Shown here: positions 48,023 to 61,216 of the stretch, piece by piece
Layout: every line of letters begins with the position of its first letter
Numbering within the stretch: position 1 is the stretch's first letter
From: Nitrososphaerales archaeon
GTDB taxonomy: Archaea > Thermoproteota > Nitrososphaeria > Nitrososphaerales > UBA213
Direction of reading: 5' to 3'
Assembly (NCBI GenBank): GCA_965197925.1
Contig: CBDAOC010000014.1
Coordinates: forward strand, 10,697-74,696
DNA: 64,000 nt
Made by a program: the position numbers and the translations under genes
The notes under the pieces: model-generated
What the model was told of the DNA's origin: nothing
The model's database searches: none
What the model saw: the letters and a program-made list of their open reading frames with translations, nothing else

Positions 48023-48388
48023 GCGAACCCAATGGGCATGCGGGTTTATAGCATAACTACTACACAAATAATAACACATATATCATAACACATGCACAAA
48101 AGCGGGCACTTTTTATCCGACTGCACAAAATGGGGCAATCGCTTGCGAACCCAATGGGCATGCGGGTTAGATGGACATTGCACAAAAAGGGGCATCATAA
48201 CTGCACAAAAGCGGGCAGTTTTTAGAACCCTGCAATATAGCGCGCGCGATTATACAATTAACGTTGCGAACCCAATGGGCATGCGGGTTAGATGGCTATA
48301 ACATAATAATAAATATGAAAAATGAAACAATAATTATTATTTTATGGCAAATACTTTACAGTGTTAACCACTCACAAACCCAATGGGC
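48023..48388 (+). repeat. spaced repeats GCGAACCCAATGGGCATGCGGGTT x3 plus TGCACAAAA-N2-GGGCA x4
   Basis: 24-mers at 48023, 48145, 48266 (spacing 122 and 121), partial at 48377; 16-mers at 48092, 48122, 48179, 48202. Confidence 0.85.
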
Positions 48389-48557
48389 CACTACGTTGGC
48401 ACGAACCTTGCATTTATGGTGGCATGCGGAGGTGAGTTGCCTCCGTATGATTTGACATCAAACAACGGAATCATAACAATAGCAAACATGATTCCCTTAT
48501 GTATGGACAGTCCATACAAAATAACACAAGCGAAAGCTTGAAAAGGATTTAGCAAAC

Positions 48558-49211
48558 ATGGCACGTTTAACGTATACCAGTGGCACAGCTTACAATCGGA
48601 AAGAGTCCATCATGATAACCACACCTTTTGACATTAATGACTTATTTCAAAAAGTTATTGATAATCCTGCCCTGCCATTAACAGGTAAGGATAAAGGGTT
48701 GAATGATAGTGTATACGGTGTTATATCCAAAGGGTTTGACATCAAGTATAATCATGCAAAAGTATGCGAACTGCTTGAATCAAGCGAGTTCCATAATGAA
48801 GTAGATAACCATGTAGAAGCGACTGTGTTGGCAAGGTTAAAAAAGCAACCTCGCGACATAGGCAGTGGCAGTGGCGGCCCGCGCGGCGGGAATAACGGAA
48901 TTACCAATGCATTAAAAATTGAGATAGGTGAATTGGTAATCGGAGCATCATGTGTTAAGGTTGGTATAGAACCCAGTGATGCGAGTGATTATGAAATCAC
49001 TAAAGAATGGGTTGTTTCTACAATCACAGGGAAGAATGAAAACAAGCCAAAACGGCGCGTTAAGAATGATAAGGAACGCGTAGAAGAATTGACAGTTAAA
49101 GTGGTTATGGCACTCCATAGCGCTGGAATTTCCAATCATGATATTGCGAATGATAATGATATGGATTTGACAATTGAGCAGGTTGACGAAATCGTTGGAT
49201 TTAATCTATAA
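48558..49211 (+). CDS. hypothetical protein, first early gene
   Basis: 217 aa ORF with AAGGA RBS, possible C-terminal HTH, followed by a terminator. Confidence 0.7.
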   Translation: MARLTYTSGTAYNRKESIMITTPFDINDLFQKVIDNPALPLTGKDKGLNDSVYGVISKGFDIKYNHAKVCELLESSEFHNEVDNHVEATVLARLKKQPRDIGSGSGGPRGGNNGITNALKIEIGELVIGASCVKVGIEPSDASDYEITKEWVVSTITGKNENKPKRRVKNDKERVEELTVKVVMALHSAGISNHDIANDNDMDLTIEQVDEIVGFNL

Positions 49212-49219
49212 GCAATCCG

Positions 49220-49264
49220 AACCTAAAAAACCGTTGACATCAACCGTCAACGGTTTTTTAGGTT
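49220..49264. terminator. bidirectional terminator, perfect 19 bp inverted repeat
   Basis: AACCTAAAAAACCGTTGAC-N7-GTCAACGGTTTTTTAGGTT. Confidence 0.8.
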
Positions 49265-49266
49265 AA

Positions 49267-49426
49267 GGAAGCGTAGGAGCGAACCGAACCCCAATGGGAA
49301 GCGCAGGAGCGAACCGAACCCCAATGGGAAGCGCAGGAGCGAACCGAACCCCAATGGGAAGCGCAGGAGCGAACCGAACCCCAATGGGAAGCGCAGGAGC
49401 GAACCGAACCCCAATGGGAAGCGCAG
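49267..49426 (+). repeat. tandem array of 5.3 x 30 bp
   Basis: GGAAGCGCAGGAGCGAACCGAACCCCAATG, one mismatch in the first copy. Confidence 0.95.
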
Positions 49427-49427
49427 A

Positions 49428-49491
49428 GGATACAAGAAACTCTTTTGGGATTATGAAAAGAGTCTCCGAATTAACGGACTGATGAGTATCC
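49428..49491 (+). ncRNA. type II hammerhead ribozyme (core variant)
   Basis: GGAUAC-aa-GAAA-CUCUUUU/AAAAGAG-UC-UCCG/CGGA-CUGAUGA-GUAUCC; all three stems pair; 2-nt insertion before GAAA. Confidence 0.7.
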
Positions 49492-49562
49492 ATCAGAATC
49501 TGCATATCGGATGCGGATTTATGGATTTTCCAGAAATTATGCATAGATAAAAAAGGAAAAAG

Positions 49563-49829
49563 ATGTATAAAATAGTTCAGGGTGATAGAAAAGACGATTA
49601 TAGAGTCCCAATTGGGATGCAGTCGGATTATGACGCTGATTCTATTGAATCAGCAATAGAATCAGCAAATAGGTTTTGTATGGATTCGTATGGAATAACT
49701 CTACAATGGGAAGATATGGAAGTAGATAATTCTGGTATGTTCCCAGTTCACGCAAGAGCTTATGGGATAGATGAAGGCTCTTATCTTGAAATAGAGGTCC
49801 GTAGCGGATACCCAGTATTTCCCTCGTAG
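49563..49829 (+). CDS. hypothetical early protein
   Basis: AAGGA RBS, 88 aa. Confidence 0.65.
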   Translation: MYKIVQGDRKDDYRVPIGMQSDYDADSIESAIESANRFCMDSYGITLQWEDMEVDNSGMFPVHARAYGIDEGSYLEIEVRSGYPVFPS

Positions 49830-49886
49830 CAATCTTACAAACATCGGATGCGGATTATTCCGAATCTGATAAGGAGTTTACGGATT

Positions 49887-50582
49887 ATGAAACGTCTACG
49901 TCCTGAGGAAATACAGGACAGGATCAAACGGCAAGAGGATGCGGAGCGTGAAAGACGTGATATCAAACCAGAGCATCGGATAAAGTCTTCGGATGATATC
50001 AAACGTAAAGAGAAGATCAACAAGGATCGGATAGAGTCTCGTAAAGCAGAATATGAGAAAAAGAGACCCGATCCTATTGATCCGAAAACTACATCGGATA
50101 ACCCAAAGCCGAAAACTGCATCGGATAAGTTTATACCAGCTGGTATCTCTTTATCCAAGCACACTCGGCAGTGCTTGAAATCAGTCGGAATTGGGAATGA
50201 ATATCAACTCGGTGTCGTAAGCTTGGAATATCTTGAATCCAAGCATAAAATCTCTCGGATGCCAGACCTTGCGTATCAGGAATTCAAGGCGTGGTATATT
50301 TGGTATAAGAATGAGCTTGAAATAGAAGAACTTGAAGAGAAGCTTGATGCCAAAGAGAAAAAAGGGATTGAGTATCAGGAGAAACTCTCGGGAATCAAGT
50401 CCAGTATTGAAATGGAGAAGAATGCTGGAACTTTGATATCGGGCGTATCAATTGACAGATCCAAACGAGGCAGAAATCGTGGGCTTTATACACCTCCGAA
50501 GAAGCACCGTGAGATCGCACTCATAAATCGTTTAGAAGAGAAACTAATGCAACTTGAAGCTAAAAAGGAGTCAAAATCATGA
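49887..50582 (+). CDS. highly charged hypothetical protein
   Basis: AAGGAG RBS before ATG 49887; K/E/R-rich. Confidence 0.65.
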   Translation: MKRLRPEEIQDRIKRQEDAERERRDIKPEHRIKSSDDIKRKEKINKDRIESRKAEYEKKRPDPIDPKTTSDNPKPKTASDKFIPAGISLSKHTRQCLKSVGIGNEYQLGVVSLEYLESKHKISRMPDLAYQEFKAWYIWYKNELEIEELEEKLDAKEKKGIEYQEKLSGIKSSIEMEKNAGTLISGVSIDRSKRGRNRGLYTPPKKHREIALINRLEEKLMQLEAKKESKS

Positions 50583-50752
50583 AACGGATAGATCGTATTG
50601 AACAAGCTATAGAACAGCTTAGAAGCGATAGCGTGAGAATAGCATTATCGTATCGCAGATGTCTCATAAATCATAGTGAAGCATCTCGGATGATATATGA
50701 TAGGAATGTAATAATCCGAAAACTTCAAAGAGGTGAATATCTTATTAGATAG
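50579..50752 (+). CDS. hypothetical protein (57 aa, not in ORF track)
   Basis: AAGGAG RBS, ATGA overlap; MKRIDRIEQAIEQL... Confidence 0.6.
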   Translation: MKRIDRIEQAIEQLRSDSVRIALSYRRCLINHSEASRMIYDRNVIIRKLQRGEYLIR

Positions 50753-50767
50753 CTTTGAAAGTCGGAT

Positions 50768-50838
50768 AAAGGGGCGGCTTGGTCTGAAGATCACCAGAAT
50801 ACTGGTGTGATTCAGGCTGAGTCGCCCCTTTTTTATTT
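50768..50838 (+). terminator. long hairpin with T-tract
   Basis: AAAGGGGCGGCTTGGTCTGAA...TTCAGGCTGAGTCGCCCCTTT followed by Ts. Confidence 0.7.
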
Positions 50839-50868
50839 AAAGACATCTATTACAAAGGAGATAGAATC

Positions 50869-50955
50869 ATGTATGAGATATGTAAAGCAGTGGCTACGAT
50901 CTTAGTCTTTGCCTTAGCAGTAGTCGTGATGCTGGTTGCCTACATAGTCTTGTAG
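50869..50955 (+). CDS. 28 aa single-pass membrane peptide
   Basis: AAGGAG RBS; MYEICKAVATILVFALAVVVMLVAYIVL. Confidence 0.55.
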   Translation: MYEICKAVATILVFALAVVVMLVAYIVL

Positions 50956-51124
50956 GAACTAATTTAGACGCGGCGGATTAATTATTAGAAATCGCATTAT
51001 GGATAAAGATCGCGAAGATCTCATAATAATCGGATGCGGATAGTCGGATACTGGAGTCGGATATTTGGCAAAAGGTATGATAGCAAAGGCAGATTTCAGC
51101 TGTAAAGCTACCTTTGCTCGTCTT

Positions 51125-51780
51125 TTTCGGCCCATACGGGCCGCCAAAAGCGGTGCTGACGGTGCTGACGGGAGCGGACAAAATTTGTGTCAGCACCGTC
51201 AAGTCAATGGCCACAAGGCTCCCACTTAACGATGCTGACACTTTTAAGATATTTTAAACTATGTTAAGTTAAGTAAATACTCATTAAGTATTTTGGAATA
51301 AAACACTTATCATAGAATAATATATCTTTACAACTCACTTAACGGATGCTAACCTATTTTAGCAAAACACTTATCATAGAATAACAACAATTTGTTGATT
51401 AGTCAACTTATGATAACCGTTGAATTGTTTGTGTAGTAAACAGACGATAACCATTGTATGTATTTGTAGTAAAATCCCGTCCAGTAAACATATGATAACC
51501 TATTTCTATTCTGGCACGCCTCAATAAAAGATATATTTTATCTTTTATTACTTACTTGATAAATATGTTTATTTATGGTATAATATGATTAGTAGGTTTG
51601 ATTAGGGTTTTGGGTGTCATAATGTCGGATGCGCGTCACGCGTCAACAGCGCTTCACGGATGCACGGCCCCATTGACGCGGCGGTGTCTATGCACGGCCC
51701 CATTGAGTTTGTAAATCCGACCTGCGGCCCCATTGGTGTGGCGGTGCTGACAACGGTGCTGACAACGGTGCTGACGTTAG
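51125..51780. repeat. iteron cluster B flanking an AT-rich core, putative replication origin
   Basis: TGCTGAC repeats (12 bp period GGTGCTGACAAC), GGCCCCATTG x3, AT-rich 51240-51610 with AAAACACTTATCATAGAATAA x2. Confidence 0.7.
51556..51584 (+). promoter_or_regulatory. sigma70-type promoter
   Basis: TTGATA-N17-TATAAT with extended -10 TG. Confidence 0.6.
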
Positions 51781-51860
51781 CATAGAATAAGTATTTTATG
51801 CTAACTATATTGAGAGTATGAAACTTATGATATAATAACCTATAGGAGATAATAGCAGTT

Positions 51861-52109
51861 ATGAAAGAGCAAAACGAGCGCAGATCAGAGGATATAAGCA
51901 TTAGGTTAGTCCAAGACCTTGTAAACTATGGTCATATGGAAATACAAGATGACTTGTCCATCTTATGGATTGGCGAGATTTGGCTTCCTTCAATAGGATG
52001 CCTTGATGTTATTGAGAGAATGAAGAATGGAGAGAACTTTGAGAGAAAGAACTTTAGTATTAGAATGTATGCTGATGACATATATTCAATTGATATATTA
52101 AATCTATAA
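51861..52109 (+). CDS. hypothetical early protein
   Basis: AGGAG RBS. Confidence 0.65.
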   Translation: MKEQNERRSEDISIRLVQDLVNYGHMEIQDDLSILWIGEIWLPSIGCLDVIERMKNGENFERKNFSIRMYADDIYSIDILNL

Positions 52110-52120
52110 GGAGACATATA

Positions 52121-52396
52121 ATGCAAGGTATCATTGAACGAGGTGAAAATGGAGATTTCAGGCTTGATGTGGTCAAAGATGAGCATATTGTCAGATCATA
52201 CAGAATTGTTGGAAGCTCTATAGACAAAAATGTTAAGATGATGGTTGGTAGATATGATGGCAATTTGGAAGTCGGTGAAGAATATAAAGAGCGAGTATTG
52301 GCAACTGGGACACATAGAGAAATGTATTACAAAATGCTAAGTATAGCAGCAGATGCTAACACAAGCATGGGTGTTATTGATATATTAAATCTATAA
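52121..52396 (+). CDS. hypothetical early protein
   Basis: AAGGAG RBS. Confidence 0.65.
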   Translation: MQGIIERGENGDFRLDVVKDEHIVRSYRIVGSSIDKNVKMMVGRYDGNLEVGEEYKERVLATGTHREMYYKMLSIAADANTSMGVIDILNL

Positions 52397-52506
52397 CATG
52401 ACAAGATGACTCTTCGGAGTCATCGGAGTATATTAAATGGGCTTATTAACAGAGGTTATACTAAACTAAGCAGCCTCATTCATGTATCAACAAGGAGATA
52501 TAGAAT

Positions 52507-52878
52507 ATGTTAGAAAAGCAACAACTGAAACACTTGATGGACACAGGATACAAAGTCCAGCAAGTCAACTTATATTTCACTGCTGATCCAGTCCCTGATA
52601 AGACTAAGATAGCAGCAGATATTAAGTCTTGGCGGATAACGATGCATATCTCATCCTTCAATGACTATTCAGCAATGGCGAATCATCTTGAAAGATTAGT
52701 TGAAAGCTATTTAGATGCTAATCTTTACATAACTGATGTTAAAGCAGTTCGTATCGGTTTGATATGGGAAAGAAAAGAAGAATATGGAACATCAGTTGAG
52801 TTCTGTGATTGTATCGTCCGTTCATCTTCGGAAATGTCCGAAGTATCAGATCAAATCATTAACCTTAGTTGGTTATAG
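52507..52878 (+). CDS. hypothetical early protein
   Basis: AAGGAG RBS. Confidence 0.65.
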   Translation: MLEKQQLKHLMDTGYKVQQVNLYFTADPVPDKTKIAADIKSWRITMHISSFNDYSAMANHLERLVESYLDANLYITDVKAVRIGLIWERKEEYGTSVEFCDCIVRSSSEMSEVSDQIINLSWL

Positions 52879-52923
52879 GTAAGATCAATCCACCTGTATT
52901 CAGGTGTCAAGGAGTATTAAAAT

Positions 52924-53091
52924 ATGTTAGATCAAGCTACGTTAGACCTGATGGAAAAGAACTTTGGCGCGAATGAAACTAAGATGTCTCAAGACAGATT
53001 TCGTAGATCTGATATTGATGAGAAAATGCGTATTAAGCGCAAGAACAACCGCAAGCAAGCTAAAAATGCTCGCAGACGTAATAGGAGATAG
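52924..53091 (+). CDS. small Arg-rich protein (55 aa, not in ORF track)
   Basis: AAGGAG RBS; ends KRKNNRKQAKNARRRNRR. Confidence 0.65.
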   Translation: MLDQATLDLMEKNFGANETKMSQDRFRRSDIDEKMRIKRKNNRKQAKNARRRNRR

Positions 53092-53096
53092 TAACT

Positions 53097-53399
53097 ATGG
53101 AAACTCGCAAGTATATCCTAACAGTAAAATGTAAGGATGAAGAACATGCTGACTGTAACTTCAACGACTTAGAAGAACTGCTTACTGACCTTCGTGACGA
53201 ACACAAAGTCATTGAGGGATATAAGCTTGAGATAGTTGAAGAGGAAGAGGAAACTATGTATTGCACAATGACTTATGAAGAACAAGAGCATTATGGGCAA
53301 TGCGTGGATCCTCAATGTCCATACTATCAGAATATGAGTGAAGAAAAGAGAGTTAATGCTATTAGAATGGGTATGATGAGTAACTCTAACATTCAATAA
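53097..53399 (+). CDS. hypothetical early protein
   Basis: AGGAG RBS. Confidence 0.65.
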   Translation: METRKYILTVKCKDEEHADCNFNDLEELLTDLRDEHKVIEGYKLEIVEEEEETMYCTMTYEEQEHYGQCVDPQCPYYQNMSEEKRVNAIRMGMMSNSNIQ

Positions 53400-53426
53400 C
53401 TAAGCAACTCACATATAGGAGATATA

Positions 53427-53714
53427 ATGCCAAGATCAACTTACGAAGTAACTCAAGATTTGATTGATAACCCTAAAGTTGAACCTCATATTGGTTGTGA
53501 TTGTTTTCTACATCATACACTGAAACCTCACTTTGGTGACGATGTAGTTTTTGGATTTGAAATTGCTAATATCAATGATTACGAATTTAAAGTTCTCAAA
53601 AACCTTAGGTTGTGGCAGATCAGAGCATTTCAATATGAGCCAATAGAACCTATCACTATATTTGTTGATACAGATGATCACACTATAGGTATAATAGGAG
53701 AAGACGATGCCTAA
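53427..53714 (+). CDS. hypothetical early protein
   Basis: AGGAG RBS. Confidence 0.65.
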   Translation: MPRSTYEVTQDLIDNPKVEPHIGCDCFLHHTLKPHFGDDVVFGFEIANINDYEFKVLKNLRLWQIRAFQYEPIEPITIFVDTDDHTIGIIGEDDA

Positions 53715-54000
53715 AGCAGCTTTTTCAAACTATCAAACAGCCCCTGCTTATGAAAACATTGATATTGATGAGATGGTAATCCACGTTATAGCTCCTCAAG
53801 AATGTGATAATCCAATTGTATACAATATAATCTCTAAAGAAGAGTTTATATCTGTTCAAGAAGAAGATTATCATGTGGATCTCATCATAATATCGTTTAC
53901 ATCCATAGATCACGGAGGGTCATCTTGGTTGTATTACAATCATTTTGAGAGCTGGAAAGACTTTATAGAGTTTTCTAAAACTGTAAAGTTTGGTATGTAA
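53707..54000 (+). CDS. hypothetical early protein
   Basis: AGGAG RBS. Confidence 0.65.
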   Translation: MPKAAFSNYQTAPAYENIDIDEMVIHVIAPQECDNPIVYNIISKEEFISVQEEDYHVDLIIISFTSIDHGGSSWLYYNHFESWKDFIEFSKTVKFGM

Positions 54001-54004
54001 ACTA

Positions 54005-54070
54005 AGCAACACGAAAGACCTGATGCTCAATCAGGTCTCGGAGGCATAGCCTTCCTGATGAGTAGTTGCT
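54005..54070 (+). ncRNA. type II hammerhead ribozyme
   Basis: AGCAACAC-GAAA-GACCUGAU/AUCAGGUC-UC-GGAGGC/GCCUUC-CUGAUGA-GUAGUUGCU; predicted cleavage after C54039. Confidence 0.9.
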
Positions 54071-54140
54071 AAAACGTGAATACACGTTATCTTTTCATTA
54101 GCTGAAATAACTTTGACATATAGAATAGGAGAATTATCTA

Positions 54141-54554
54141 ATGAGTGAACAGACTAATCCCGCTCCGAGTAATTTTCATATTGATGAGTATGCTACATGG
54201 ATAAAAGAGTGTAAAAAGACTTTCCACAAGCAAGTTAGAAGCAATGCTCGTGGAAGAGGTGAGAAGGTATTCAAATCCTTTCACGGATTTGATGAAGACG
54301 GAAATTCCGAATTTGCTTACTTTCACCTTGAGAAGTGTAGTCCAACTCACTATAACATTCTTATATCAGCACCTTATCTCAATGACGATATAGATTTAAC
54401 CAGTGTAAACTATACATCAAGAGGATTCACATATATTGCAGCTCTTGAAAAAGGTTTACGGTGGGACGGTGGCAGAATAAGGCATAAGATTGAAATGGCG
54501 ATCACTGGTGGCGATAGAGATGATGTAGATATGTTTGAGGAGGACAGTGTATAA
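54141..54554 (+). CDS. hypothetical early protein
   Basis: AGGAG RBS. Confidence 0.65.
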   Translation: MSEQTNPAPSNFHIDEYATWIKECKKTFHKQVRSNARGRGEKVFKSFHGFDEDGNSEFAYFHLEKCSPTHYNILISAPYLNDDIDLTSVNYTSRGFTYIAALEKGLRWDGGRIRHKIEMAITGGDRDDVDMFEEDSV

Positions 54555-54892
54555 TGTATTTAGAATGGAGTAAGGAAACTAATCAATTATGGATCAACGG
54601 AGTCCATCATGGGCCTCTGCATGTAGTTAGAGTTGACCACGATAATCAACTTCTTATTCTTAAAGCAGATGGTTATCAAGTAGATGGATACTATATGACA
54701 ACTGAGTTTCAAGTATGGAAGATCAGTCAGTTTGTCGTAAACGAGAATTTCATTAACATGCAAGGCGATCAGCTTATTATCTTTCCTTCAAGAAGTATGA
54801 CTTATTGTAATGCTTCTAATATCATAGAAAACACCAAAGATTATGAAGATTACTTGAAATACTCTCAAATGGAGGTTATAGTCAACGTATAA
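54554..54892 (+). CDS. hypothetical early protein
   Basis: TAATG coupling. Confidence 0.65.
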   Translation: MYLEWSKETNQLWINGVHHGPLHVVRVDHDNQLLILKADGYQVDGYYMTTEFQVWKISQFVVNENFINMQGDQLIIFPSRSMTYCNASNIIENTKDYEDYLKYSQMEVIVNV

Positions 54893-54946
54893 ATAACAAA
54901 GCCCCACTCAACGACAACCTGTATGCAGGTTTTCCATAAGTGGGGC

Positions 54947-55991
54947 TGGGCGAGAGGCAGGGAAGCGAAGATGAGGGACTCGCCAACGAAGCCCCCTCAG
55001 AACAGAGTGATGCACACTCAGAAACTCGCAGACTTCTTGGATTGGGAGATGATGATATGTCTGAATTAGAAAAGTATCAAGACGAATTCCCGTCAACTGT
55101 TGATACGAGTAGAACTCCAGTTGAAGAACAAATTGTTTCATATCTCCAAGATCATCCAATCGGATACGCTTTTTCAAGTGAAATATCCCAAGTTATCCGT
55201 ATACGAGAAGAGGACGCATATGAGATATGTAATGAATTGGTAAGAAACAGAAAGATTAGCTCATTCAACATTATAGTTTCGCTTATTGGTGATATCTACG
55301 CTTGGTATATATCAACTAATCGCCAAATCCCTTTGAATGATGACGGAACTCTCGGTTATGAGGAGTTTCATAATTCAATCGCACAAGCTGTATCTAATCA
55401 AGATGCAGCGGTCGGAAGGCGTGGGGAATGACGAGGCATCCGACAACGAAGCAGCCTCTAAACAGAGTGACGCACACTCACAACAGAGATATCCAACAGC
55501 TGATGAACTTGATCATAAGGTTATTACTCTACTATCAAGAGAATCTGACAGATTAACATTGCAAGACATTTTAGATGAGCTTGATTCTGACGAAGATAGC
55601 ATATCATATTCAATTGATAGAATTAGAGATAGGATAAAGATTGATGTTGCTAATGGAATAACTTTCTACTCAATTCCGAAAGATGAGGATAAACCTATGG
55701 AAAAGACTTCAGGTATCAGTCTTGCTATAATGGAAGTCATTAAGGATTCTGGTCCTCAGACTTTAGATCAGATAATTACAATAGTTCAGGATATCAGTAT
55801 TAATTCACGTCATCAGATACACCAGTCTGTTAACAGATTGCTTGAGTCCAATGATCTGGAAACTGCTGATGGAGCTATCACTATTTATCGTATTCCACAA
55901 GACTCTGATGAAGATCAGAGTCGGGCGAGAGGCAGGGAAGCGAAGATGAGGGACTCGCCAACGAAGCCCCCTCAGAACAGTCTGATGCACA
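54947..55991 (+). repeat. three dispersed ~75 bp GC-rich direct repeats
   Basis: copies at ~54947-55020, ~55409-55480 (diverged), ~55922-55991; core GGGCGAGAGGCAGGGAAGCGAAGATGAGGGACTCGCCAACGAAGCCCCCTCAGAACAG. Confidence 0.8.
55057..55431 (+). CDS. winged-HTH-like protein
   Basis: EQIVSYL...EIS...ICNELVRNRKI; GGAG RBS before ATG 55057. Confidence 0.55.
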   Translation: MSELEKYQDEFPSTVDTSRTPVEEQIVSYLQDHPIGYAFSSEISQVIRIREEDAYEICNELVRNRKISSFNIIVSLIGDIYAWYISTNRQIPLNDDGTLGYEEFHNSIAQAVSNQDAAVGRRGE

Positions 55992-55999
55992 GACATTAA
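55337..55999 (+). CDS. tandem winged-HTH protein (start uncertain)
   Basis: two LTLQDI/QTLDQI-type wHTH units. Confidence 0.6.
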   Translation: MMTELSVMRSFIIQSHKLYLIKMQRSEGVGNDEASDNEAASKQSDAHSQQRYPTADELDHKVITLLSRESDRLTLQDILDELDSDEDSISYSIDRIRDRIKIDVANGITFYSIPKDEDKPMEKTSGISLAIMEVIKDSGPQTLDQIITIVQDISINSRHQIHQSVNRLLESNDLETADGAITIYRIPQDSDEDQSRARGREAKMRDSPTKPPQNSLMHRH

Positions 56000-56010
56000 G
56001 AGATGAGATA

Positions 56011-56430
56011 TTGGATATATTTGAAAACAGATTATCTTATGGTGACAATCTAACTAAAGAACAAGTTAATGGTATGACTTGCATAGTTAGAAATTCAAGA
56101 GATAAAGTTGCAGCAACTTTATCTCTTCTAAGTCTTGACGGTAAAATCGGTTACTATAATGAGAAAGGCACAGCAAAGTATTTTTCTGTTTTAGGATTAG
56201 ACATTGAAGGTATCAAGTCATCTATTCAATCGGCCTTGGGATCTAATCTTGAAGGATTAGAAATTGAAGAGTTACACTCCAAAATGACTCAAAGAAGACC
56301 TCACATCTGTGTTGGGTTAAGAATACTAATCAAGGAGGGAAAGGTGAAAAAAAGAGACGGAATACCTGATTACTATAATCGTGATGTATACTATTTGTCG
56401 CAAGACTCGGATGACTCCGAGTCGGAGTAG
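56011..56430 (+). CDS. winged-HTH-like protein (start uncertain)
   Basis: GLRILIKEGKVKK...VYYL wing; frame is open from 55912. Confidence 0.55.
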   Translation: MDIFENRLSYGDNLTKEQVNGMTCIVRNSRDKVAATLSLLSLDGKIGYYNEKGTAKYFSVLGLDIEGIKSSIQSALGSNLEGLEIEELHSKMTQRRPHICVGLRILIKEGKVKKRDGIPDYYNRDVYYLSQDSDDSESE

Positions 56431-56504
56431 CATTAAAGTGATATGTAGGTTGCTATTCAACGAAGACGCCTACTTACTTATTTGAAATTAAAAGGAGATT
56501 TTAT

Positions 56505-56696
56505 ATGAATTCTTTAGATAGACTTCTTTCAAAGTTTAAAGATGAAGATGATAATGACCGTATATGTGAGCTATCAACTAAAGTTGTAAGTGATAGCATA
56601 GATATCAATAGCCTTTCTGAAGCTGATAGAAACAAAGTTAGGGATGTAATAAGAAAAAGAAAGATAGCTGTTGATCAAGTTATTATGTGGTCTTAA
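56505..56696 (+). CDS. hypothetical protein
   Basis: AAGGAG RBS. Confidence 0.6.
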   Translation: MNSLDRLLSKFKDEDDNDRICELSTKVVSDSIDINSLSEADRNKVRDVIRKRKIAVDQVIMWS

Positions 56697-56706
56697 GGAG
56701 ATTGTT

Positions 56707-57480
56707 ATGCGTTTTAATAAGACTCACCCTCCAAGCCCAGTTGAATCTGAATATGCATACTCTTTTAATCAAGTTGAAGAGAAGTGTATAGAACTTGGGA
56801 TCAATGTTGAAGAGGGTATAAAGGATACTGACTATTATCTTGCTTGTAAGAAGTTACACGGATCAGGTATAAAACCTGGAACTGTTTTTTCTCAGTGGAA
56901 GACATTTGCTGAGTATCTTAAGCACACAACTCGGTCGCCTTGGGGACAGATACAAGAGGCTTACGAGATGTGTCCAGGTATAATTCAAGTCCATACTGCT
57001 GGTCATGGAGGTTTATGGATATCGGATGAGTATAAAGCTAAACTTCCTAAACATCATAGCAGCAAGCGCTGGTATGAGGAAGACGTTGAAGCTTCTGAAT
57101 GCTTACAACATCTCGGTTTATTATCTCTTGTTGATAAAAGAACTATCATAAGAGTTAATGAGCGTGATATTGAAAAAGGAAGATTATCACGTAAAGACCT
57201 TTACAATGATTCAACTTATGGAAATCATAGAGAAGGTTTTTATGGCGGACCTATTGCTGAAGCTTACAAGCGTATATCAAAGGATAAGAATCTTGAAATG
57301 ATATGCTCTGTAAGAATTAATAATGGTAGATATGTTGGAAGACTTTTCCCAAAGCCTGGAGGTTGGCGTATTGCTAAACTACCAGAGACTGCGTGTAAGT
57401 TTATGATTGACTTTGACAATAACATCAAAGTCAATCCTATGATGTTTGTTCTAAAACCGTATAGATATAGGAGTAAGTAA
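56707..57480 (+). CDS. DUF7007-like domain protein
   Basis: SPWG...PGIIQVHTAGHGG...WYEED motif; AAGGAG RBS. Confidence 0.6.
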   Translation: MRFNKTHPPSPVESEYAYSFNQVEEKCIELGINVEEGIKDTDYYLACKKLHGSGIKPGTVFSQWKTFAEYLKHTTRSPWGQIQEAYEMCPGIIQVHTAGHGGLWISDEYKAKLPKHHSSKRWYEEDVEASECLQHLGLLSLVDKRTIIRVNERDIEKGRLSRKDLYNDSTYGNHREGFYGGPIAEAYKRISKDKNLEMICSVRINNGRYVGRLFPKPGGWRIAKLPETACKFMIDFDNNIKVNPMMFVLKPYRYRSK

Positions 57481-57809
57481 TGAATTATGAAATCAAGTTA
57501 GAGAAAACTACTGCTGAATTGTTTGACACCTATAACTCTGAGTATCATAAAGACTGCAAATGTTATCAGGTAACTGGTTTTCCAAAGTCTAATATATTTG
57601 ACTTTGTAGTAGCTAAAGACTTTAATTTTACATCTAAATGGGTTATGTATGAGAAGGGTAGTGGATTGCTGGTTACGAGAACTTCATTTAGAACAAGAAA
57701 GGAAGCTATACTAAAAGGTGTAGAAAGACTTCAATCAGTTTCAGATGAGTATTTAATCAGTTGTCGTAATGATAATCTTTCACGCTATGAAAGATATAGG
57801 AGCAAGTAA
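57480..57809 (+). CDS. hypothetical protein
   Basis: AGGAG RBS, TAATG coupling. Confidence 0.65.
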   Translation: MNYEIKLEKTTAELFDTYNSEYHKDCKCYQVTGFPKSNIFDFVVAKDFNFTSKWVMYEKGSGLLVTRTSFRTRKEAILKGVERLQSVSDEYLISCRNDNLSRYERYRSK

Positions 57810-58060
57810 TGACTTCTGACGAGCAGAAAATCAAGAATATCCTCAAGGTTATTAAGTCTGTTGAATATAAGCTAAGCACTGACAATATGCTTATGGGAGT
57901 TTTGTATGACGAGAGAAAAGGAGAGATTATATTTGAATATCATTCTGGTGAAGATGTAAAAGTTGCTATCCCTAAAGATAGCAAGTGGAAAAGAAACTTT
58001 ATGACTGTTATCAAGATTTATAGGCGTATTAAGAGTTTGTTCAATAATAGGAGATCGTAA
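57809..58060 (+). CDS. hypothetical protein
   Basis: AGGAG RBS, TAATG coupling. Confidence 0.65.
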   Translation: MTSDEQKIKNILKVIKSVEYKLSTDNMLMGVLYDERKGEIIFEYHSGEDVKVAIPKDSKWKRNFMTVIKIYRRIKSLFNNRRS

Positions 58061-58314
58061 TGCATGTAGCAAAGTTTACTTACGAAAGAAGCTATGATAA
58101 CACAGACACTCGTGCAGGAGTGCTTACATTAACTCATATCAATGATGGAAAAGTCGTTGAGATATGGACTATGTGGAATGTTGGAGCTGATGGCTTTAGG
58201 ATAGAGAACGAGCTATCTGGAGGGGTTGTCTTTAAAGCTGGCTACGGAATGCATGACTTATGCTGGGGTTGGCTTATCAATAAGGCTGTTGAGATAGAAG
58301 AATTGAATGACTAA
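58060..58314 (+). CDS. hypothetical protein
   Basis: AGGAG RBS, TAATG coupling. Confidence 0.65.
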   Translation: MHVAKFTYERSYDNTDTRAGVLTLTHINDGKVVEIWTMWNVGADGFRIENELSGGVVFKAGYGMHDLCWGWLINKAVEIEELND

Positions 58315-58376
58315 GCAACACGAAACACCTGCTCATAAAGCAGGTGTCGGCTAACGCCCTGATGAGTAGTTGCTTA
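58312..58376 (+). ncRNA. type II hammerhead ribozyme
   Basis: UAAGCAACAC-GAAA-CACCUGCU/AGCAGGUG-UC-GGC/GCC-CUGAUGA-GUAGUUGCUUA; predicted cleavage after GUC at C58348. Confidence 0.9.
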
Positions 58377-58399
58377 TCAGTTAATATAAGGAGAAAGCT

Positions 58400-58624
58400 A
58401 TGAGTAAAATAGTTTATGACAAGTCAAGTGATGTATACAAGAAGTGGCTGCGGATAACTGCAAAGAATGTTTTATCTACTTGCGGTTATGGTAGTGCTAC
58501 TATGAAACAGGTTAATAGAGTAGTTAAGCACTACAAACCTGAAGTTCAAAAGGATATATCTAAGACTTGTCGTGTGATGCTAATGAGAGCTAAAAAAAGG
58601 AGAAAAAATGGGGAAAAGAGTTGA
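58400..58624 (+). CDS. small basic protein
   Basis: AAGGAG RBS. Confidence 0.6.
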   Translation: MSKIVYDKSSDVYKKWLRITAKNVLSTCGYGSATMKQVNRVVKHYKPEVQKDISKTCRVMLMRAKKRRKNGEKS

Positions 58625-58955
58625 GTTTTATAGGAGTTCAGATACAAATCTTCCATGCGTAAGATTTTATGATAATGATAAGTGCAATTCTTTGTATCGT
58701 GTTGAGCAAATAGTTGATAATCCTGAAAAGCGGATGTCATCTAAAAAAGATGACTTTCACATACAAGGGTATGAAGTATCTCATCACTATACAGAAGAAA
58801 AAGGTAATTGGTTAGAATACAAGAAGTTTGGGACTCCATACATAGCTCCATATCCTATTTGTCATATTTATCTTGTAGACCTTGCTATAAATATGACTGG
58901 GAATAAACAGTTTATATCTGTCTCTCAAGAATGTGATGGAGAATTTGTTGATTAG
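58608..58955 (+). CDS. hypothetical protein
   Basis: AAGGAG RBS. Confidence 0.6.
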   Translation: MGKRVEFYRSSDTNLPCVRFYDNDKCNSLYRVEQIVDNPEKRMSSKKDDFHIQGYEVSHHYTEEKGNWLEYKKFGTPYIAPYPICHIYLVDLAINMTGNKQFISVSQECDGEFVD

Positions 58956-58989
58956 TTTGCTATAACTTCGGCCCAAACGGGCCGCATGT

Positions 58990-59018
58990 TTGCATTTAAC
59001 CGTGTTTTGTGGTATAAT
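58990..59018 (+). promoter_or_regulatory. sigma70-type promoter
   Basis: TTGCAT-N17-TATAAT with TG; palindrome at 58970-58983 just upstream. Confidence 0.65.
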
Positions 59019-59026
59019 AATTAATA

Positions 59027-59359
59027 ATGTTTCAAAAATGGAGGATTGAATTGGAAAATTACCTCAAGATGGAGCTTGCTAACGGCAAGATTCACACTCC
59101 TCACTATCTTCACCCAGCATTACCAGAGACTCTCAAGCTAACTCGTGGACGTATTATGTATATGCGTGACCAGATTAAGTCTTGGGACGATATAAAAGAG
59201 TGTGCAACTTACGCAGCTAAGCGAATGATTAGAAGAAAAACTGCTATGACAGAGAAACAGCTCGTTGACTACACTATGGGTGTTTTGAGAGCTGAAAGCA
59301 TAGCACTAAAGGCGGTGAATCAATGTTTGAGCCTCGTAGTTTCTACAACGAATGGATAG
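59027..59359 (+). CDS. hypothetical protein
   Basis: ORF; true start may be TTG 59051 after GGAGG. Confidence 0.6.
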   Translation: MFQKWRIELENYLKMELANGKIHTPHYLHPALPETLKLTRGRIMYMRDQIKSWDDIKECATYAAKRMIRRKTAMTEKQLVDYTMGVLRAESIALKAVNQCLSLVVSTTNG

Positions 59360-59697
59360 AGCAAGCAGACCCAGAAGAAGACTGCATACAACAGTGTGAA
59401 CTTATTGCGCTCATCAAGCATCTTGGACTGGAGTTTGATGATGCTTTTGATAGAATAACTATTCTGCTACCTAAAATGTGTCCAGACATAGCAAGGTGGT
59501 ATGGTATAAAATGGGCAAAGCCTTTGCCTTGTGAAGTAGACTACTGGAAAGAAATACAAGCTGATATTGACGCTGAAAAGGGGGATCGTGAACATGATGA
59601 TGTCCATAAAGGAAGATACGCATATGATCCTTATTCACTTGTTCGTGATAGTTTCAGATCAGATCAAAGCACTATAGCACAAGGAGAGCAATACTGA
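59323..59697 (+). CDS. hypothetical protein
   Basis: ORF in operon. Confidence 0.6.
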   Translation: MFEPRSFYNEWIEQADPEEDCIQQCELIALIKHLGLEFDDAFDRITILLPKMCPDIARWYGIKWAKPLPCEVDYWKEIQADIDAEKGDREHDDVHKGRYAYDPYSLVRDSFRSDQSTIAQGEQY

Positions 59698-59981
59698 TGT
59701 ATAAAATGGTTAACTTGAATAATGCACATCAATGGTGTTTATTGTCAGAAGATGAGATGGCAGAACTTGTCCTTAAGCGCGTCAATCATTGTGTCGGAGA
59801 TGGAATTCCAGTTGAAGTCAAGCAATGCAATATCACTAATGCTTTGGTAGTAATCAGAGGAAGACCAGCGACTGTTGATTATCATCTTCTATTTCCAAAC
59901 ACAGAGATTAGCTATGAAAGCGAGGACCAAGAGAAATACGCAGAAAAAGTAATGGGCGATGCTACAATGCCTTGGTTATAG
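59697..59981 (+). CDS. hypothetical protein
   Basis: AAGGAG RBS, TGATG coupling. Confidence 0.6.
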   Translation: MYKMVNLNNAHQWCLLSEDEMAELVLKRVNHCVGDGIPVEVKQCNITNALVVIRGRPATVDYHLLFPNTEISYESEDQEKYAEKVMGDATMPWL

Positions 59982-59987
59982 ACTAAA

Positions 59988-60077
59988 GCGACTGTCTGGT
60001 GTCGGAGACGGAGATTGAGTCGGAACTCATAAAAAACGTATCCCGTTCTCTTGGTGGTTCAATTCTGCCAAGTCGCA
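59988..60077 (+). ncRNA. tRNA-like structured RNA (acceptor stem and T-arm, non-canonical D/anticodon region)
   Basis: GCGACU/AGUCGC-A acceptor, GGUGG-UUCAAUU-CUGCC T-arm, inner helix GAGACGGAGAU/AUCCCGUUCUC. Confidence 0.55.
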
Positions 60078-60131
60078 TCTCTCAAGAGAATCTTAACACA
60101 GTTTATACCTCTATTATGGAGGTTATATTAT

Positions 60132-60728
60132 ATGAACAAGCATATAGTGATGTTATATTCAACAGAGGGTGATCAACTCACTGTGGATAATCACTTGCTT
60201 ATTTCTTCTTTGGGCATACCTCACATCTGCATTCACATAGGAAATACAATCCGATCTGTATTCGCGATAGAGGCTAAAACATATATTGAAGCTAAGTTCA
60301 ATATAGAACTGATAAAAGAAGAAGATAGCATTGAAGGTATACCGTTTGAAGGTAACTCAATGATAGTTACGCCACAATCTGAGGATTTATTAGTAGTTAG
60401 AAAGTTTATGAACTTCTTAGATGATGACAATTTTGACATCATCAAAAAAGAAGTTTTGCAGTCTATGCCCTGTATTTCTATAGAAAGATTTTGTTTGCTT
60501 CTTTCTAAATATATGAAGATTATATCTAAAGAGTGTGATGTTTATCTTTCACGTTTAGATGTGAGCTTTGACTATAAGTCGGAAGAGTTTGTAGATAGCG
60601 TATGTAATAAAGCTGGTAAAATCTATAACAATATGGAATTAGCTTATACGCATATCTTCAACAAAAACAAGTCTGGACAATATAGGGGAGCTTCAGAAGA
60701 GTTTCATAAGCTACACAATATGAATTAA
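60132..60728 (+). CDS. hypothetical protein
   Basis: GGAGG RBS before ATG 60132. Confidence 0.6.
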   Translation: MNKHIVMLYSTEGDQLTVDNHLLISSLGIPHICIHIGNTIRSVFAIEAKTYIEAKFNIELIKEEDSIEGIPFEGNSMIVTPQSEDLLVVRKFMNFLDDDNFDIIKKEVLQSMPCISIERFCLLLSKYMKIISKECDVYLSRLDVSFDYKSEEFVDSVCNKAGKIYNNMELAYTHIFNKNKSGQYRGASEEFHKLHNMN

Positions 60729-60759
60729 ATCAGGTATAAACTGTGTTTGGATAACTATT

Positions 60760-61050
60760 ATGAACAATTATGTCATTAACCTTGTTAATGAGCTTAAAGA
60801 ACTTATATTACAAGAACTCACAGAAGAGTTTGAGTTTGCTGAAGATATAGCTAATAAAGTAATGGAAATACCAGAATGTCCAAGAGACTATGGATATGTA
60901 TCTGCATTTAGCATTGCATCAGCTTTGAGAAAACTTGCTATGGACGGCAAAGTGGAATCTATAATGCATGAAAGAAACAAAGCTGATGGAACTGAATATG
61001 TTAACGAGTATTGGCTTTGGAAATATAAGAAAAAGGATAAATATGGATAA
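60760..61050 (+). CDS. winged-HTH-like protein
   Basis: IASALRKLAMDGKVES...YWL. Confidence 0.55.
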   Translation: MNNYVINLVNELKELILQELTEEFEFAEDIANKVMEIPECPRDYGYVSAFSIASALRKLAMDGKVESIMHERNKADGTEYVNEYWLWKYKKKDKYG

Positions 61051-61216
61051 TTTAGATAAGAAGTGCATAGGTTTGTGTAGAAATATAAAAACCAATGTTG
61101 AACTTATATCTGCATGTATAGAAACTGGAAAGATTCCAAATTCTAATATGAGTAGAATATTAAAAATGCTAAACAGATCAAACTCTATTATAGAGAAGAT
61201 ACTAAAAGGAGCTTAA
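61043..61216 (+). CDS. hypothetical protein
   Basis: AAGGA RBS before ATG 61043. Confidence 0.55.
   Translation: MDNLDKKCIGLCRNIKTNVELISACIETGKIPNSNMSRILKMLNRSNSIIEKILKGA

Follow-up and report, generated by a model that had tools for sequence, protein, structure and literature searches.

Three type II hammerhead motifs with core-complementary tails between small genes of a tailed phage

Between its small genes, a tailed phage carries three complete-core type II hammerhead motifs on the + strand, termed here HH1, HH2 and HH3; each is followed downstream by a complement of its core strand CUGAUGA, the anti-core. The intact cores, the sense-strand intergenic sites and a tested precedent from 2011 support the view that these are putative hammerheads acting in the processing of small-gene messages. 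In the reading preferred here, to which a probability of about 0.6 is given, HH1-HH3 would each act on one of two separate transcripts, dividing them into linear pieces, and the anti-core would slow each cut and also make it irreversible. The motifs (Table 1) occupy part of a window of 64,000 nucleotides, meaning the whole stretch of DNA analyzed, on a contig (C14) whose genes for terminase, tape measure, neck, helicase, primase and lysozyme-like proteins mark it as a phage genome.

Table 1. Positions of the hammerhead motifs, their anti-cores and neighboring features in the window
Feature	Position	Strand	Basis or remark
Predicted bidirectional terminator upstream of HH1, a perfect 19-bp inverted repeat having U tracts on each strand	49220..49264		z -8.2
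Tandem repeat of 30 bp in 5.3 copies that ends at HH1	49267..49426	+	RNA almost uridine-free (3.7%)
HH1, type II hammerhead variant	49428..49491	+	descriptor, folding; predicted cut after C49464 (GUC)
Anti-core of HH1, CAUCAG	49491..49496	+	6-bp hairpin with core; shuffle p 0.39, alone not significant
Strong predicted intrinsic terminator closing the HH1 unit	50768..50835	+	hairpin -46.9 kcal/mol, U tract, z -9.0
Sigma70-type promoter match, 11/12, extended -10	51556..51584	+	best of 60 sites, 52 expected by chance; lead only
Copy of the 10 nt with which the 5' flank and arm of HH2/HH3 begin	53399..53408	+	border of a two-gene cassette absent in some strains
HH2, type II hammerhead	54005..54070	+	descriptor, folding; predicted cut after C54039 (CUC)
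Small hairpin of HH2 with U tract, then anti-core	54073..54101	+	folding
Small genes of the 4309-nt piece from the HH2 cut to the HH3 cut	54141..58314	+	one DUF7007 and several winged-helix-like among them
HH3, type II hammerhead	58312..58376	+	descriptor, folding; predicted cut after C58348 (GUC)
Anti-core of HH3	58372..58380	+	9-bp hairpin with core; shuffle p 0.024

The first-pass annotation had proposed three type II hammerheads, and all the structural elements that it named were found at the positions given, including the stem II with a bulged A that is common to HH2 and HH3. A descriptor of the motif matched three times in the 2,910,306-base genome bin, in every case within the window and on the + strand; 200 dinucleotide shuffles of the window averaged 0.015 matches each and never gave more than 1. 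All three copies present CUGANGA, GAAA and NUH at a three-way junction, with the triplets GUC, CUC and GUC, and loops cap stems I and III, with stem II left open, which is the type II topology. Stem II consists of 6 bp in HH1, 8 bp in HH2 and 10 bp in HH3, stem III of 7 bp plus A-U in HH1 and 8 bp plus A-U in HH2, and stem I of 4, 6 and 3 bp, respectively; folding z-scores are -2.7, -4.5 and -4.9. The CUGAUGA strand of HH1 is located at 49479-85, and two A residues (49434-35), absent from the first-pass annotation, are inserted between its stem II and GAAA. The hammerhead core, as described in the text of PMC10085705, has a G10.1-C11.1 pair adjoining G12, with the GAAA block uninterrupted; this arrangement is found in HH2 and HH3, and in HH1 the two extra A intervene. 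Among the short-read contigs listed, HH2 is matched letter for letter in three runs and HH3 in one, and none of the short-read pieces among the matches listed covers HH1.

Clustered type II hammerheads that flank genes or gene blocks in prophages were described by Perreault et al. (2011; PMC3088659), whose text proposes the processing of long messages and reports in vitro cleavage of tandem hammerheads from three clusters and, for one cluster, cleavage in E. coli in vivo. HH1-HH3 resemble those clusters in their type II topology, consensus core and several sense-strand copies between small phage genes, but differ from the typical members in that text in the length of stem II, 6-10 bp as opposed to 2-4 bp, with the bulged A in HH2 and HH3. 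According to the same text, a pseudoknot of at least 4 bp between loop I and the 3' tail occurs in the majority of type II hammerheads, though not in all, and it was found in 99 of the 185 control type II hammerheads collected here, a set biased by its seed pattern. In contrast, no compatible pseudoknot of that length was found in HH1-HH3, where 3, 2 and 4 bp are possible; an alternative HH3 with a short stem II plus pseudoknot was rejected, since the 4-bp partner is part of stem II, the 4-nt loop would be fully paired and HH2 is unable to form it. The long A-bulged stem II of HH2 and HH3 appears in 0/185 controls. The 2-nt insert of HH1 is not among the variants in the text of PMC3088659 and is absent from 192 controls, only 33 of them informative in this respect; this is a point against the main explanation. 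No tertiary contact joining stem I to stem II was identified in HH1-HH3, and hammerheads lacking this contact are stated in PMC3884650 to require more than 10 mM Mg2+.

The Rfam check proposed in the first-pass annotation did not recover the motifs: RF02276 (Hammerhead_II, cut-off 37 bits) gave no match at the three sites at E<=5 or E<=10, and none of the five matches from the Rfam scan of the window at E<=5 was a hammerhead. A Poribacteria-1 Rfam match was dismissed as not significant: it scored 26 bits where the cut-off is 74, and 8 of 14 control genomes were positive in the same search. Contig C14 yielded no further type I, II, III or variant-core hammerheads, and across the genome our own model R2 found only HH1, HH2 and HH3, with an E of 1.7e-4 for HH1, which itself belongs to the R2 training set. 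This model matched 2 of 38 genomes, both with ordinary type II motifs, and a second model, R1, matched none of 151 Poribacteria genomes. The HH2/HH3 pattern had no match in viral contigs, and three further searches returned 13, 7 and 20 matches, none with the HH2/HH3 architecture on folding; L043 is an ordinary hammerhead cluster, and L211, from a named Poribacteria record, is a chance match inside a coding region. Phage BLAST gave matches at chance level only, 60 relatives of the host bin gave none of substance, and three DNA searches for related phages found none and a fourth gave two distant ones; related phages have terminases of 58-68% identity and contigs of up to about 77 kb. No locus homologous to HH1-HH3 was found in the searches of viral contigs, pattern matches and 151 Poribacteria genomes.

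The predicted cuts are separated by 4575 and 4309 nt, in agreement with the spacing of about 4.5 kb noted earlier, and HH2 and HH3 flank one gene block, within which a pseudoknot RNA without prior description occurs three times. The motifs had been assigned to one early transcript. This part was not supported, because a strong predicted terminator and a new promoter match intervene between HH1 and HH2/HH3; the promoter match, which is a lead only, likely opens the HH2/HH3 unit, and the label 'early' would follow from gene type alone. The proposal of RNA self-processing by the phage retains the backing of the cores, the sites and the 2011 precedent, without the single early transcript.

The anti-core of HH2 (54094-54101) forms 8 bp with the core, including two G-U pairs (shuffle p 0.03), and that of HH3 stops 7 nt ahead of the ORF 58400 SD. 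In the folding model, the MFE folds of the free 3' products of HH2 and HH3 are core-locked hairpins. In the uncleaved HH3 precursor the anti-core wins in the model, the core being paired downstream at 0.56-0.98 once this region is transcribed, so that HH3 cleavage may be poor. In the proposed mechanism, cleavage would leave the upstream piece with a 2',3'-cyclic phosphate and the downstream piece with a 5'-OH hairpin, as expected from hammerhead chemistry. The HH2 and HH3 cuts together would release the 4309-nt gene block, and the HH1 cut, probably a weak one given the AA insert, would trim the uridine-poor repeat leader off a separate 1.4-kb message. Folding predicts that stems II of 6-10 bp are long enough to keep the products together, and that the anti-core, by pairing with CUGAUGA in the 3' product, would displace stem II, free the pieces and block religation. 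In HH1 and HH3 the anti-core would compete before cleavage as well, and the rate would thereby be tuned. The benefit may lie in segment-specific stability of the mRNA, its end being a 5'-OH hairpin, and no switch of ribosome access is envisaged; a translation switch through access to the RBS was rejected, since the shifts in opening energy are small and of mixed sign (-0.4, +0.8 to +2.0 and -1.5 kcal/mol).

Similar tails occur in the control hammerheads, where an anti-core lies 3-40 nt downstream in 21/185 cases, compared with 1 upstream and 7/184 further downstream (shuffle mean 6.6, maximum 15, n=1000). A perfect anti-core 4-18 nt behind stem II, a window picked after the data were seen, is present in 17 of 91 independent control clusters (shuffle mean 1.9, maximum 8, n=2000), and the mirror windows contain 0, 1 and 0. 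The cases in this window carry seven different stem II arms, and a loop I partner is present in 0/20. The anti-core tracks a change at core position 7 in one control (L075) and less cleanly in two further cases; a control with a C7 core (L108) retains a non-matching tail. A thermodynamic test of core sequestration did not separate the controls (94/185) from shuffles (79-102). The 21 anti-core controls all have a stem II of exactly 4 bp, and 18 of them are without a pseudoknot. In the control class where AUCAG follows a 4-bp stem II, the anti-core stands directly behind stem II, as on the 3' side of HH1 plus two more pairs; unlike this class, in which stem II is always 4 bp, the HH2 anti-core is displaced behind a hairpin and includes G-U pairs. 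Literature searches, covering the main texts of chiefly open-access papers, turned up no account of either the anti-core or phage circles. The TRAP design reportedly consists of engineered attenuated hammerheads, in which the 3' attenuator is a complement of the catalytic core and is released by an activator strand; the tails of HH1-HH3 have the same core complementarity and no known activator, whereas TRAP is said to be synthetic and equipped with one. In ELVd, hammerheads with an AUC triplet form inactive metastable folds and cleave less co-transcriptionally, as described in the text of Carbonell et al. (2006; PMC1636495), and in HH1-HH3 an AUC-containing sequence could likewise favor an inactive fold. 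The ELVd change is an engineered one at the cleavage triplet, avoided in nature according to that text, whereas HH1-HH3 carry the complement downstream of stem II, and it is enriched in the controls.

The motifs might be mostly silent or decayed, copied intergenic cassettes locked by the anti-core and kept as recombination borders and leaders, with HH1 especially inactive; we consider this unlikely, although several observations agree with it. Besides the missing Rfam match and the AA insert of HH1, the stem I of HH3 has only 3 bp, as against 4-10 bp in 185 controls, and when the flanks are included, stem II of HH1 and HH3 pairs with a mean probability of 0.0-0.3. Strain joints occur at the hammerhead borders, where related strains gain or lose genes among the matches listed; the joint 53398 to 53997 was seen in 2 of 3 runs among those matches, with a side of 20 letters, which is weak. 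However, the conserved core positions are all intact in the three copies despite diverged loops and stems, stem III contains compensatory changes, all three copies are sense-strand and between genes, and with upstream sequence only the modeled hammerhead folds form at 0.87, 0.89 and 0.52.

The placement of the motifs relative to genes allows for another, improbable, arrangement, whereby a ribosome terminating at the HH3 arm or before HH2 would open stem II, the anti-core would then lock the core, and only untranslated messages would be cut. Two motifs had been described as starting right at a stop codon, which is accurate for HH3, the 5' arm of which overlaps the TAA (58312-14) of ORF 58060-58314, and less so for HH2, which begins 4 nt past the stop at 53998-54000. 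Such gating would also fit the two HH3 folds, hammerhead and anti-core, which are close in energy, and the stop-like triplet within 5 nt of stem II in 88/185 controls, a count for which no null was computed. It is opposed by the absence of a gene upstream of HH1, where the 30-bp tandem repeat is found, and the UAA ahead of stem II may be structural, as 75 of the 82 controls whose stem II has 4 bp carry an A before it. The short distance to an RBS reported earlier applies to HH3 (24 nt to the next ATG) but not to HH1 and HH2 (about 70 nt).

The arms common to HH2 and HH3, of 12 and 9 nt, exceed those of all 129 control neighbor pairs (maximum 6). The preferred account of linear processing would explain them by the copying of one cassette, which would double as a recombination border for gene exchange. 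Stems that differ and still pair had been taken as selection on structure. The two sequences show compensatory changes in 2/9 pairs of stem III and in 0/8 of stem II, a contrast without significance (117/500 shuffles) because only two sequences are compared. The shared stem II is itself weak evidence of selection, because control neighbors often share arms (54/129 pairs have at least 4 nt in common on both sides) and related strains gain or lose genes at the borders. The shared arms could alternatively serve to make circles, a very remote prospect in our estimation: the identical stem II would pair both ends of the 54040-58348 piece, and a hybrid hammerhead, with the HH3 5' half (cyclic phosphate) as 3' end and the HH2 3' half (5'-OH) as 5' end, would ligate a 4309-nt circular mRNA. 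HH2 and HH3 would then be a directional self-circularizing pair, in which the anti-cores would lock unwanted products and the tight anti-core of HH3 would remove the competing one. The swapped halves have a ddG of -8.7 kcal/mol in the hammerhead fold, compared with -8.8 for native HH2 and -5.1 for native HH3, and a splice-type join reaches only -2.6 kcal/mol in the model; tertiary-stabilized hammerheads religated to about 10% in vitro in the account of PMC3884650. Nevertheless, the text of PMC3088659 reports that circles and spliced products were sought in such clusters and none detected, the free 3' product of HH2 is itself predicted to be core-locked, the ends lie 4.3 kb apart, the stem II identity is not significant as noted, and a Pfam scan of 77 ORFs turned up no RNA-ligase family.

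Clustered phage hammerheads have themselves been known since 2011, and their purpose is still described as open in PMC6765202; HH1-HH3 add one example of a shape missed by Rfam. The more useful result is the core-complementary tail, which is present in HH1-HH3 and in roughly a fifth of the control clusters. If the anti-core is a natural lock, it would explain the tuning of rate and the avoidance of religation in such ribozymes. The HH2/HH3 pair would also provide a clean test case for ribozyme-made circular phage mRNA, because the junction 58348 to 54040 is predicted to the base.

The three type II hammerhead motifs claimed in the first-pass annotation (HH1, HH2 and HH3) are all present as described, and they are real motifs of an already known kind. 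Folded in isolation, HH1, HH2 and HH3 each take on the fold of a type II hammerhead (z-scores -2.7, -4.5 and -4.9, respectively). A descriptor comprising, in order, GAAA, stem III, UH, stem I, CUGANGA and stem II recovers these three and no other match in the whole 2.91-Mb genome, compared with a mean of 0.015 matches (maximum 1) in 200 shuffled windows; looser searches of the phage contig, C14, for hammerhead types I-III and variant cores gave no further motif. HH1 also contains two extra A residues between stem II and GAAA, absent from the earlier description. The Rfam Hammerhead_II model (RF02276), to which the annotation had pointed as a check, gives no score at any of the three, and none of the five window matches to Rfam at E<=5 is a hammerhead; their shape is a variant missed by Rfam. 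Short-read contigs confirm HH2 in three runs and HH3 in one, these three runs representing at most two samples of one study and possibly being themselves the source. No homologues of the locus were found in the viral contigs or genomes searched by pattern, or by R1, our own search model.

Positions of the hammerhead motifs and of neighbouring RNA and regulatory features in the window
Feature	Coordinates	Strand	Remarks
HH1	49428-49491	+	
HH2	54005-54070	+	
HH3	58312-58376	+	
Perfect 19-bp inverted repeat, terminator-like	49220-49264		precedes 30-bp tandem repeat
30-bp tandem repeat, 5.3 copies, 3.7% U	49267-49426		between terminator-like palindrome and HH1; ends at HH1
Very strong terminator-like hairpin	50768-50835		z -9.0; between HH1 and HH2
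Promoter match, best of region	51556-51584		between HH1 and HH2
Pseudoknot RNA copy 1	54949-55019	+	between HH2 and HH3
Pseudoknot RNA copy 2	55411-55479	+	between HH2 and HH3
Pseudoknot RNA copy 3	55924-55994	+	between HH2 and HH3

The contig (74,696 bases) belongs to a tailed phage, coding for a terminase, neck, tape measure, helicase, primase, methylase and lysozyme-like gene; of 29 ORFs tested in 48558-61216, a single one could be assigned to a family, DUF7007. The phage shows bacterial signals, and C14 is therefore likely misbinned in the bin classed as archaeal, whose other 19 contigs it does not match by BLAST. There is only a hint of Poribacteria as host: the terminase profile matches 36 of 176 genomes of this phylum, the sole one searched, a tandem motif from the phage non-coding region matches nine of these genomes and one genome has a homologue of the C14 pseudoknot RNA. 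Related terminases are located on contigs of 72-78 kb, and a near-identical one on a 129-kb contig.

The single early transcript that had been proposed is not upheld, as the terminator-like hairpin and the promoter match split HH1 from HH2; HH1 thus likely acts on its own separate message. Between HH2 and HH3 no strong terminator was found on the + strand, the candidate at ~56445 folding no better than shuffles (z -1.2). Further upstream, 48397-48411 is a perfect sigma54 consensus, preceded by tandem sites (48078-48233) which resemble enhancer-protein binding sites; similar sites occupy intergenic DNA in nine Poribacteria genomes. The 9-bp core of the 30-bp repeat recurs in four more copies at 48028-48387, with related sites at 51667-51735 and 15369, and these are likely operator or iteron sites.

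Related strains gain and lose genes at the hammerhead borders, with joints at 53398-53997, 53669-54032 and 54070-54554 (80% likeness), and the stem II arm shared by HH2 and HH3 is thus attributed to copying and recombination. Some strains join 52405 to 55922. The ORF at 49563-49829, flanked by copies one and two of a 12-bp repeat (49507, 49844 and 51030), is absent in strains. Two hairpins at 52405-52498 weakly match Poribacteria-1 (26 bits against a cut-off of 74) and have in common with the HH2/HH3 flank the octamer ACUAAGCA, whose four copies in the window are all intergenic (52465-58310).

The pseudoknot RNA matches no Rfam family in a scan of the window. It consists of a 6-bp helix, a long purine-rich loop, a 5-bp pseudoknot helix, a single A, an A-rich linker and a 5-bp hairpin. 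Six of its 16 pairs are compensatory among the copies and none is broken, a result reached in 0 of 500 shuffles, although the structure was derived from the same sequences. A fourth, more diverged copy (L259 5396-5494, G258:C3; 54.5 bits) sits among small genes of an 80-kb Poribacteria contig otherwise unrelated to C14. The pattern gave no match in viral contigs and 20 in genomes, mostly chance. This RNA is a candidate for a new ribozyme or translation element. Three winged-helix-like ORFs at 54940-56430 (+) each begin inside a copy, the frame shifting at every copy; the third has no clear start, the second frame break is matched by short-read contigs, and in four related proteins either the start or the out-of-frame ending is the same.

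For comparison, a seed pattern in viral contigs yielded at least 131 loci, which together with L043 made 132; the descriptor identified 188 distinct motifs in 117 of these, and removal of three with short flanks left 185. These are predicted motifs, biased toward GUC sites, C11.1 and U7. Among the 185 listed, contiguous stem II measures 2-5 bp, reaching at least 8 bp in seven when one bulge is allowed, and the 3'-side A bulge of HH2 and HH3 appears in none of these seven. Stem I spans 4-10 bp, and a 4-bp pseudoknot between loop I and the tail is possible in 99. An insert like that of HH1 was seen in 0 of 192 listed controls, just 33 of which could have revealed one. At least 4 nt of the arm are shared on both sides in 54 of 129 neighbouring pairs (maximum 6), while HH2 and HH3 have 12 and 9 nt in common; their sharing is therefore ordinary, but its length is not. 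A Poribacteria genome likewise carries a type II hammerhead of ordinary design, its site being GUA (L242 1505-1560, G197:C131).

Downstream of every motif lies a complement of its own CUGAUGA, termed here the anti-core; it follows immediately in HH1 and HH3, and a small hairpin intervenes in HH2. Taken singly, the three signals are modest (shuffle p of 0.39, 0.03 and 0.024, respectively). The anti-core is enriched behind phage hammerheads: 21 of the 185 listed controls have a perfect 5-mer 3-40 nt downstream, against one upstream, 7/184 at greater distance downstream and a shuffle mean of 6.6 (at most 15 in 1000 shuffles). With controls collapsed to clusters, 17 of 91 have it at 4-18 nt, a window picked after the 3-40 nt result, versus 1.9 in shuffles (maximum 8 of 2000) and 0, 1 and 0 in mirror windows. 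Stem II is 4 bp in all 21 listed cases at 3-40 nt, 18 of which have no pseudoknot; at 4-18 nt the anti-core comes with seven different stem II arms, and a loop I partner was found in 0 of 20. Among the 17 listed controls with a C7 core, one has a perfectly matching tail, two a less clean one and one a non-matching one, the remainder having no tail. In a folding-energy test, real and shuffled tails could not be told apart (94/185 versus 79-102). In L100 (~1500-1560) an upstream core copy can pair with the anti-core in the precursor, decoy-like, and such a 5' partner is found in 4 of 20 listed anti-core controls.

We infer that the anti-core locks the core. In the folding model, the hammerhead forms with upstream sequence only (0.87, 0.89 and 0.52 for HH1, HH2 and HH3), and the anti-core, once transcribed, competes in HH1 and HH3 and hardly in HH2; after cleavage, the 3' pieces of HH2 and HH3, once free, are predicted to fold as core-locked hairpins. 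Cutting would thus be slow, partial and irreversible, giving linear pieces which start with a 5'-OH hairpin. The main doubt about such cutting is that no I-II tertiary contact was identified in HH1-HH3, and hammerheads lacking it are described, in the portion of the source available, as weak at cellular Mg2+ (PMC3884650). Predicted shifts in ribosome access are at most 2 kcal/mol and in both directions, and RNA stability would therefore be the likelier target. It is very improbable that HH2 and HH3 instead close the excised block into a 4309-nt circle. The HH3 5' half and HH2 3' half would form a full hammerhead (-8.7 kcal/mol versus -8.8 and -5.1 for native HH2 and HH3), and the halves joined the other way round pair weakly (-2.6), an asymmetry which fits such a circle; yet all of its support comes from energy models, the covariation contrast between HH2 and HH3 is not significant, and the HH2 product is predicted to carry its own lock. 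Clusters of type II hammerheads around prophage genes were described by Perreault et al. 2011 (PMC3088659), where, in the sections available, three clusters cleaved, processing into shorter mRNAs was proposed, and spliced or circular products were not detected, a negative result that also counts against the circle. A 2019 review, in its accessible part, leaves the function of phage hammerheads open (PMC6765202).

For the anti-core, the nearest precedent found is the effect of AUC on a viroid hammerhead (PMC1636495), and our literature search found no description of a core-complementary tail. Such a tail is a recurring, testable and apparently undescribed feature of phage hammerheads.
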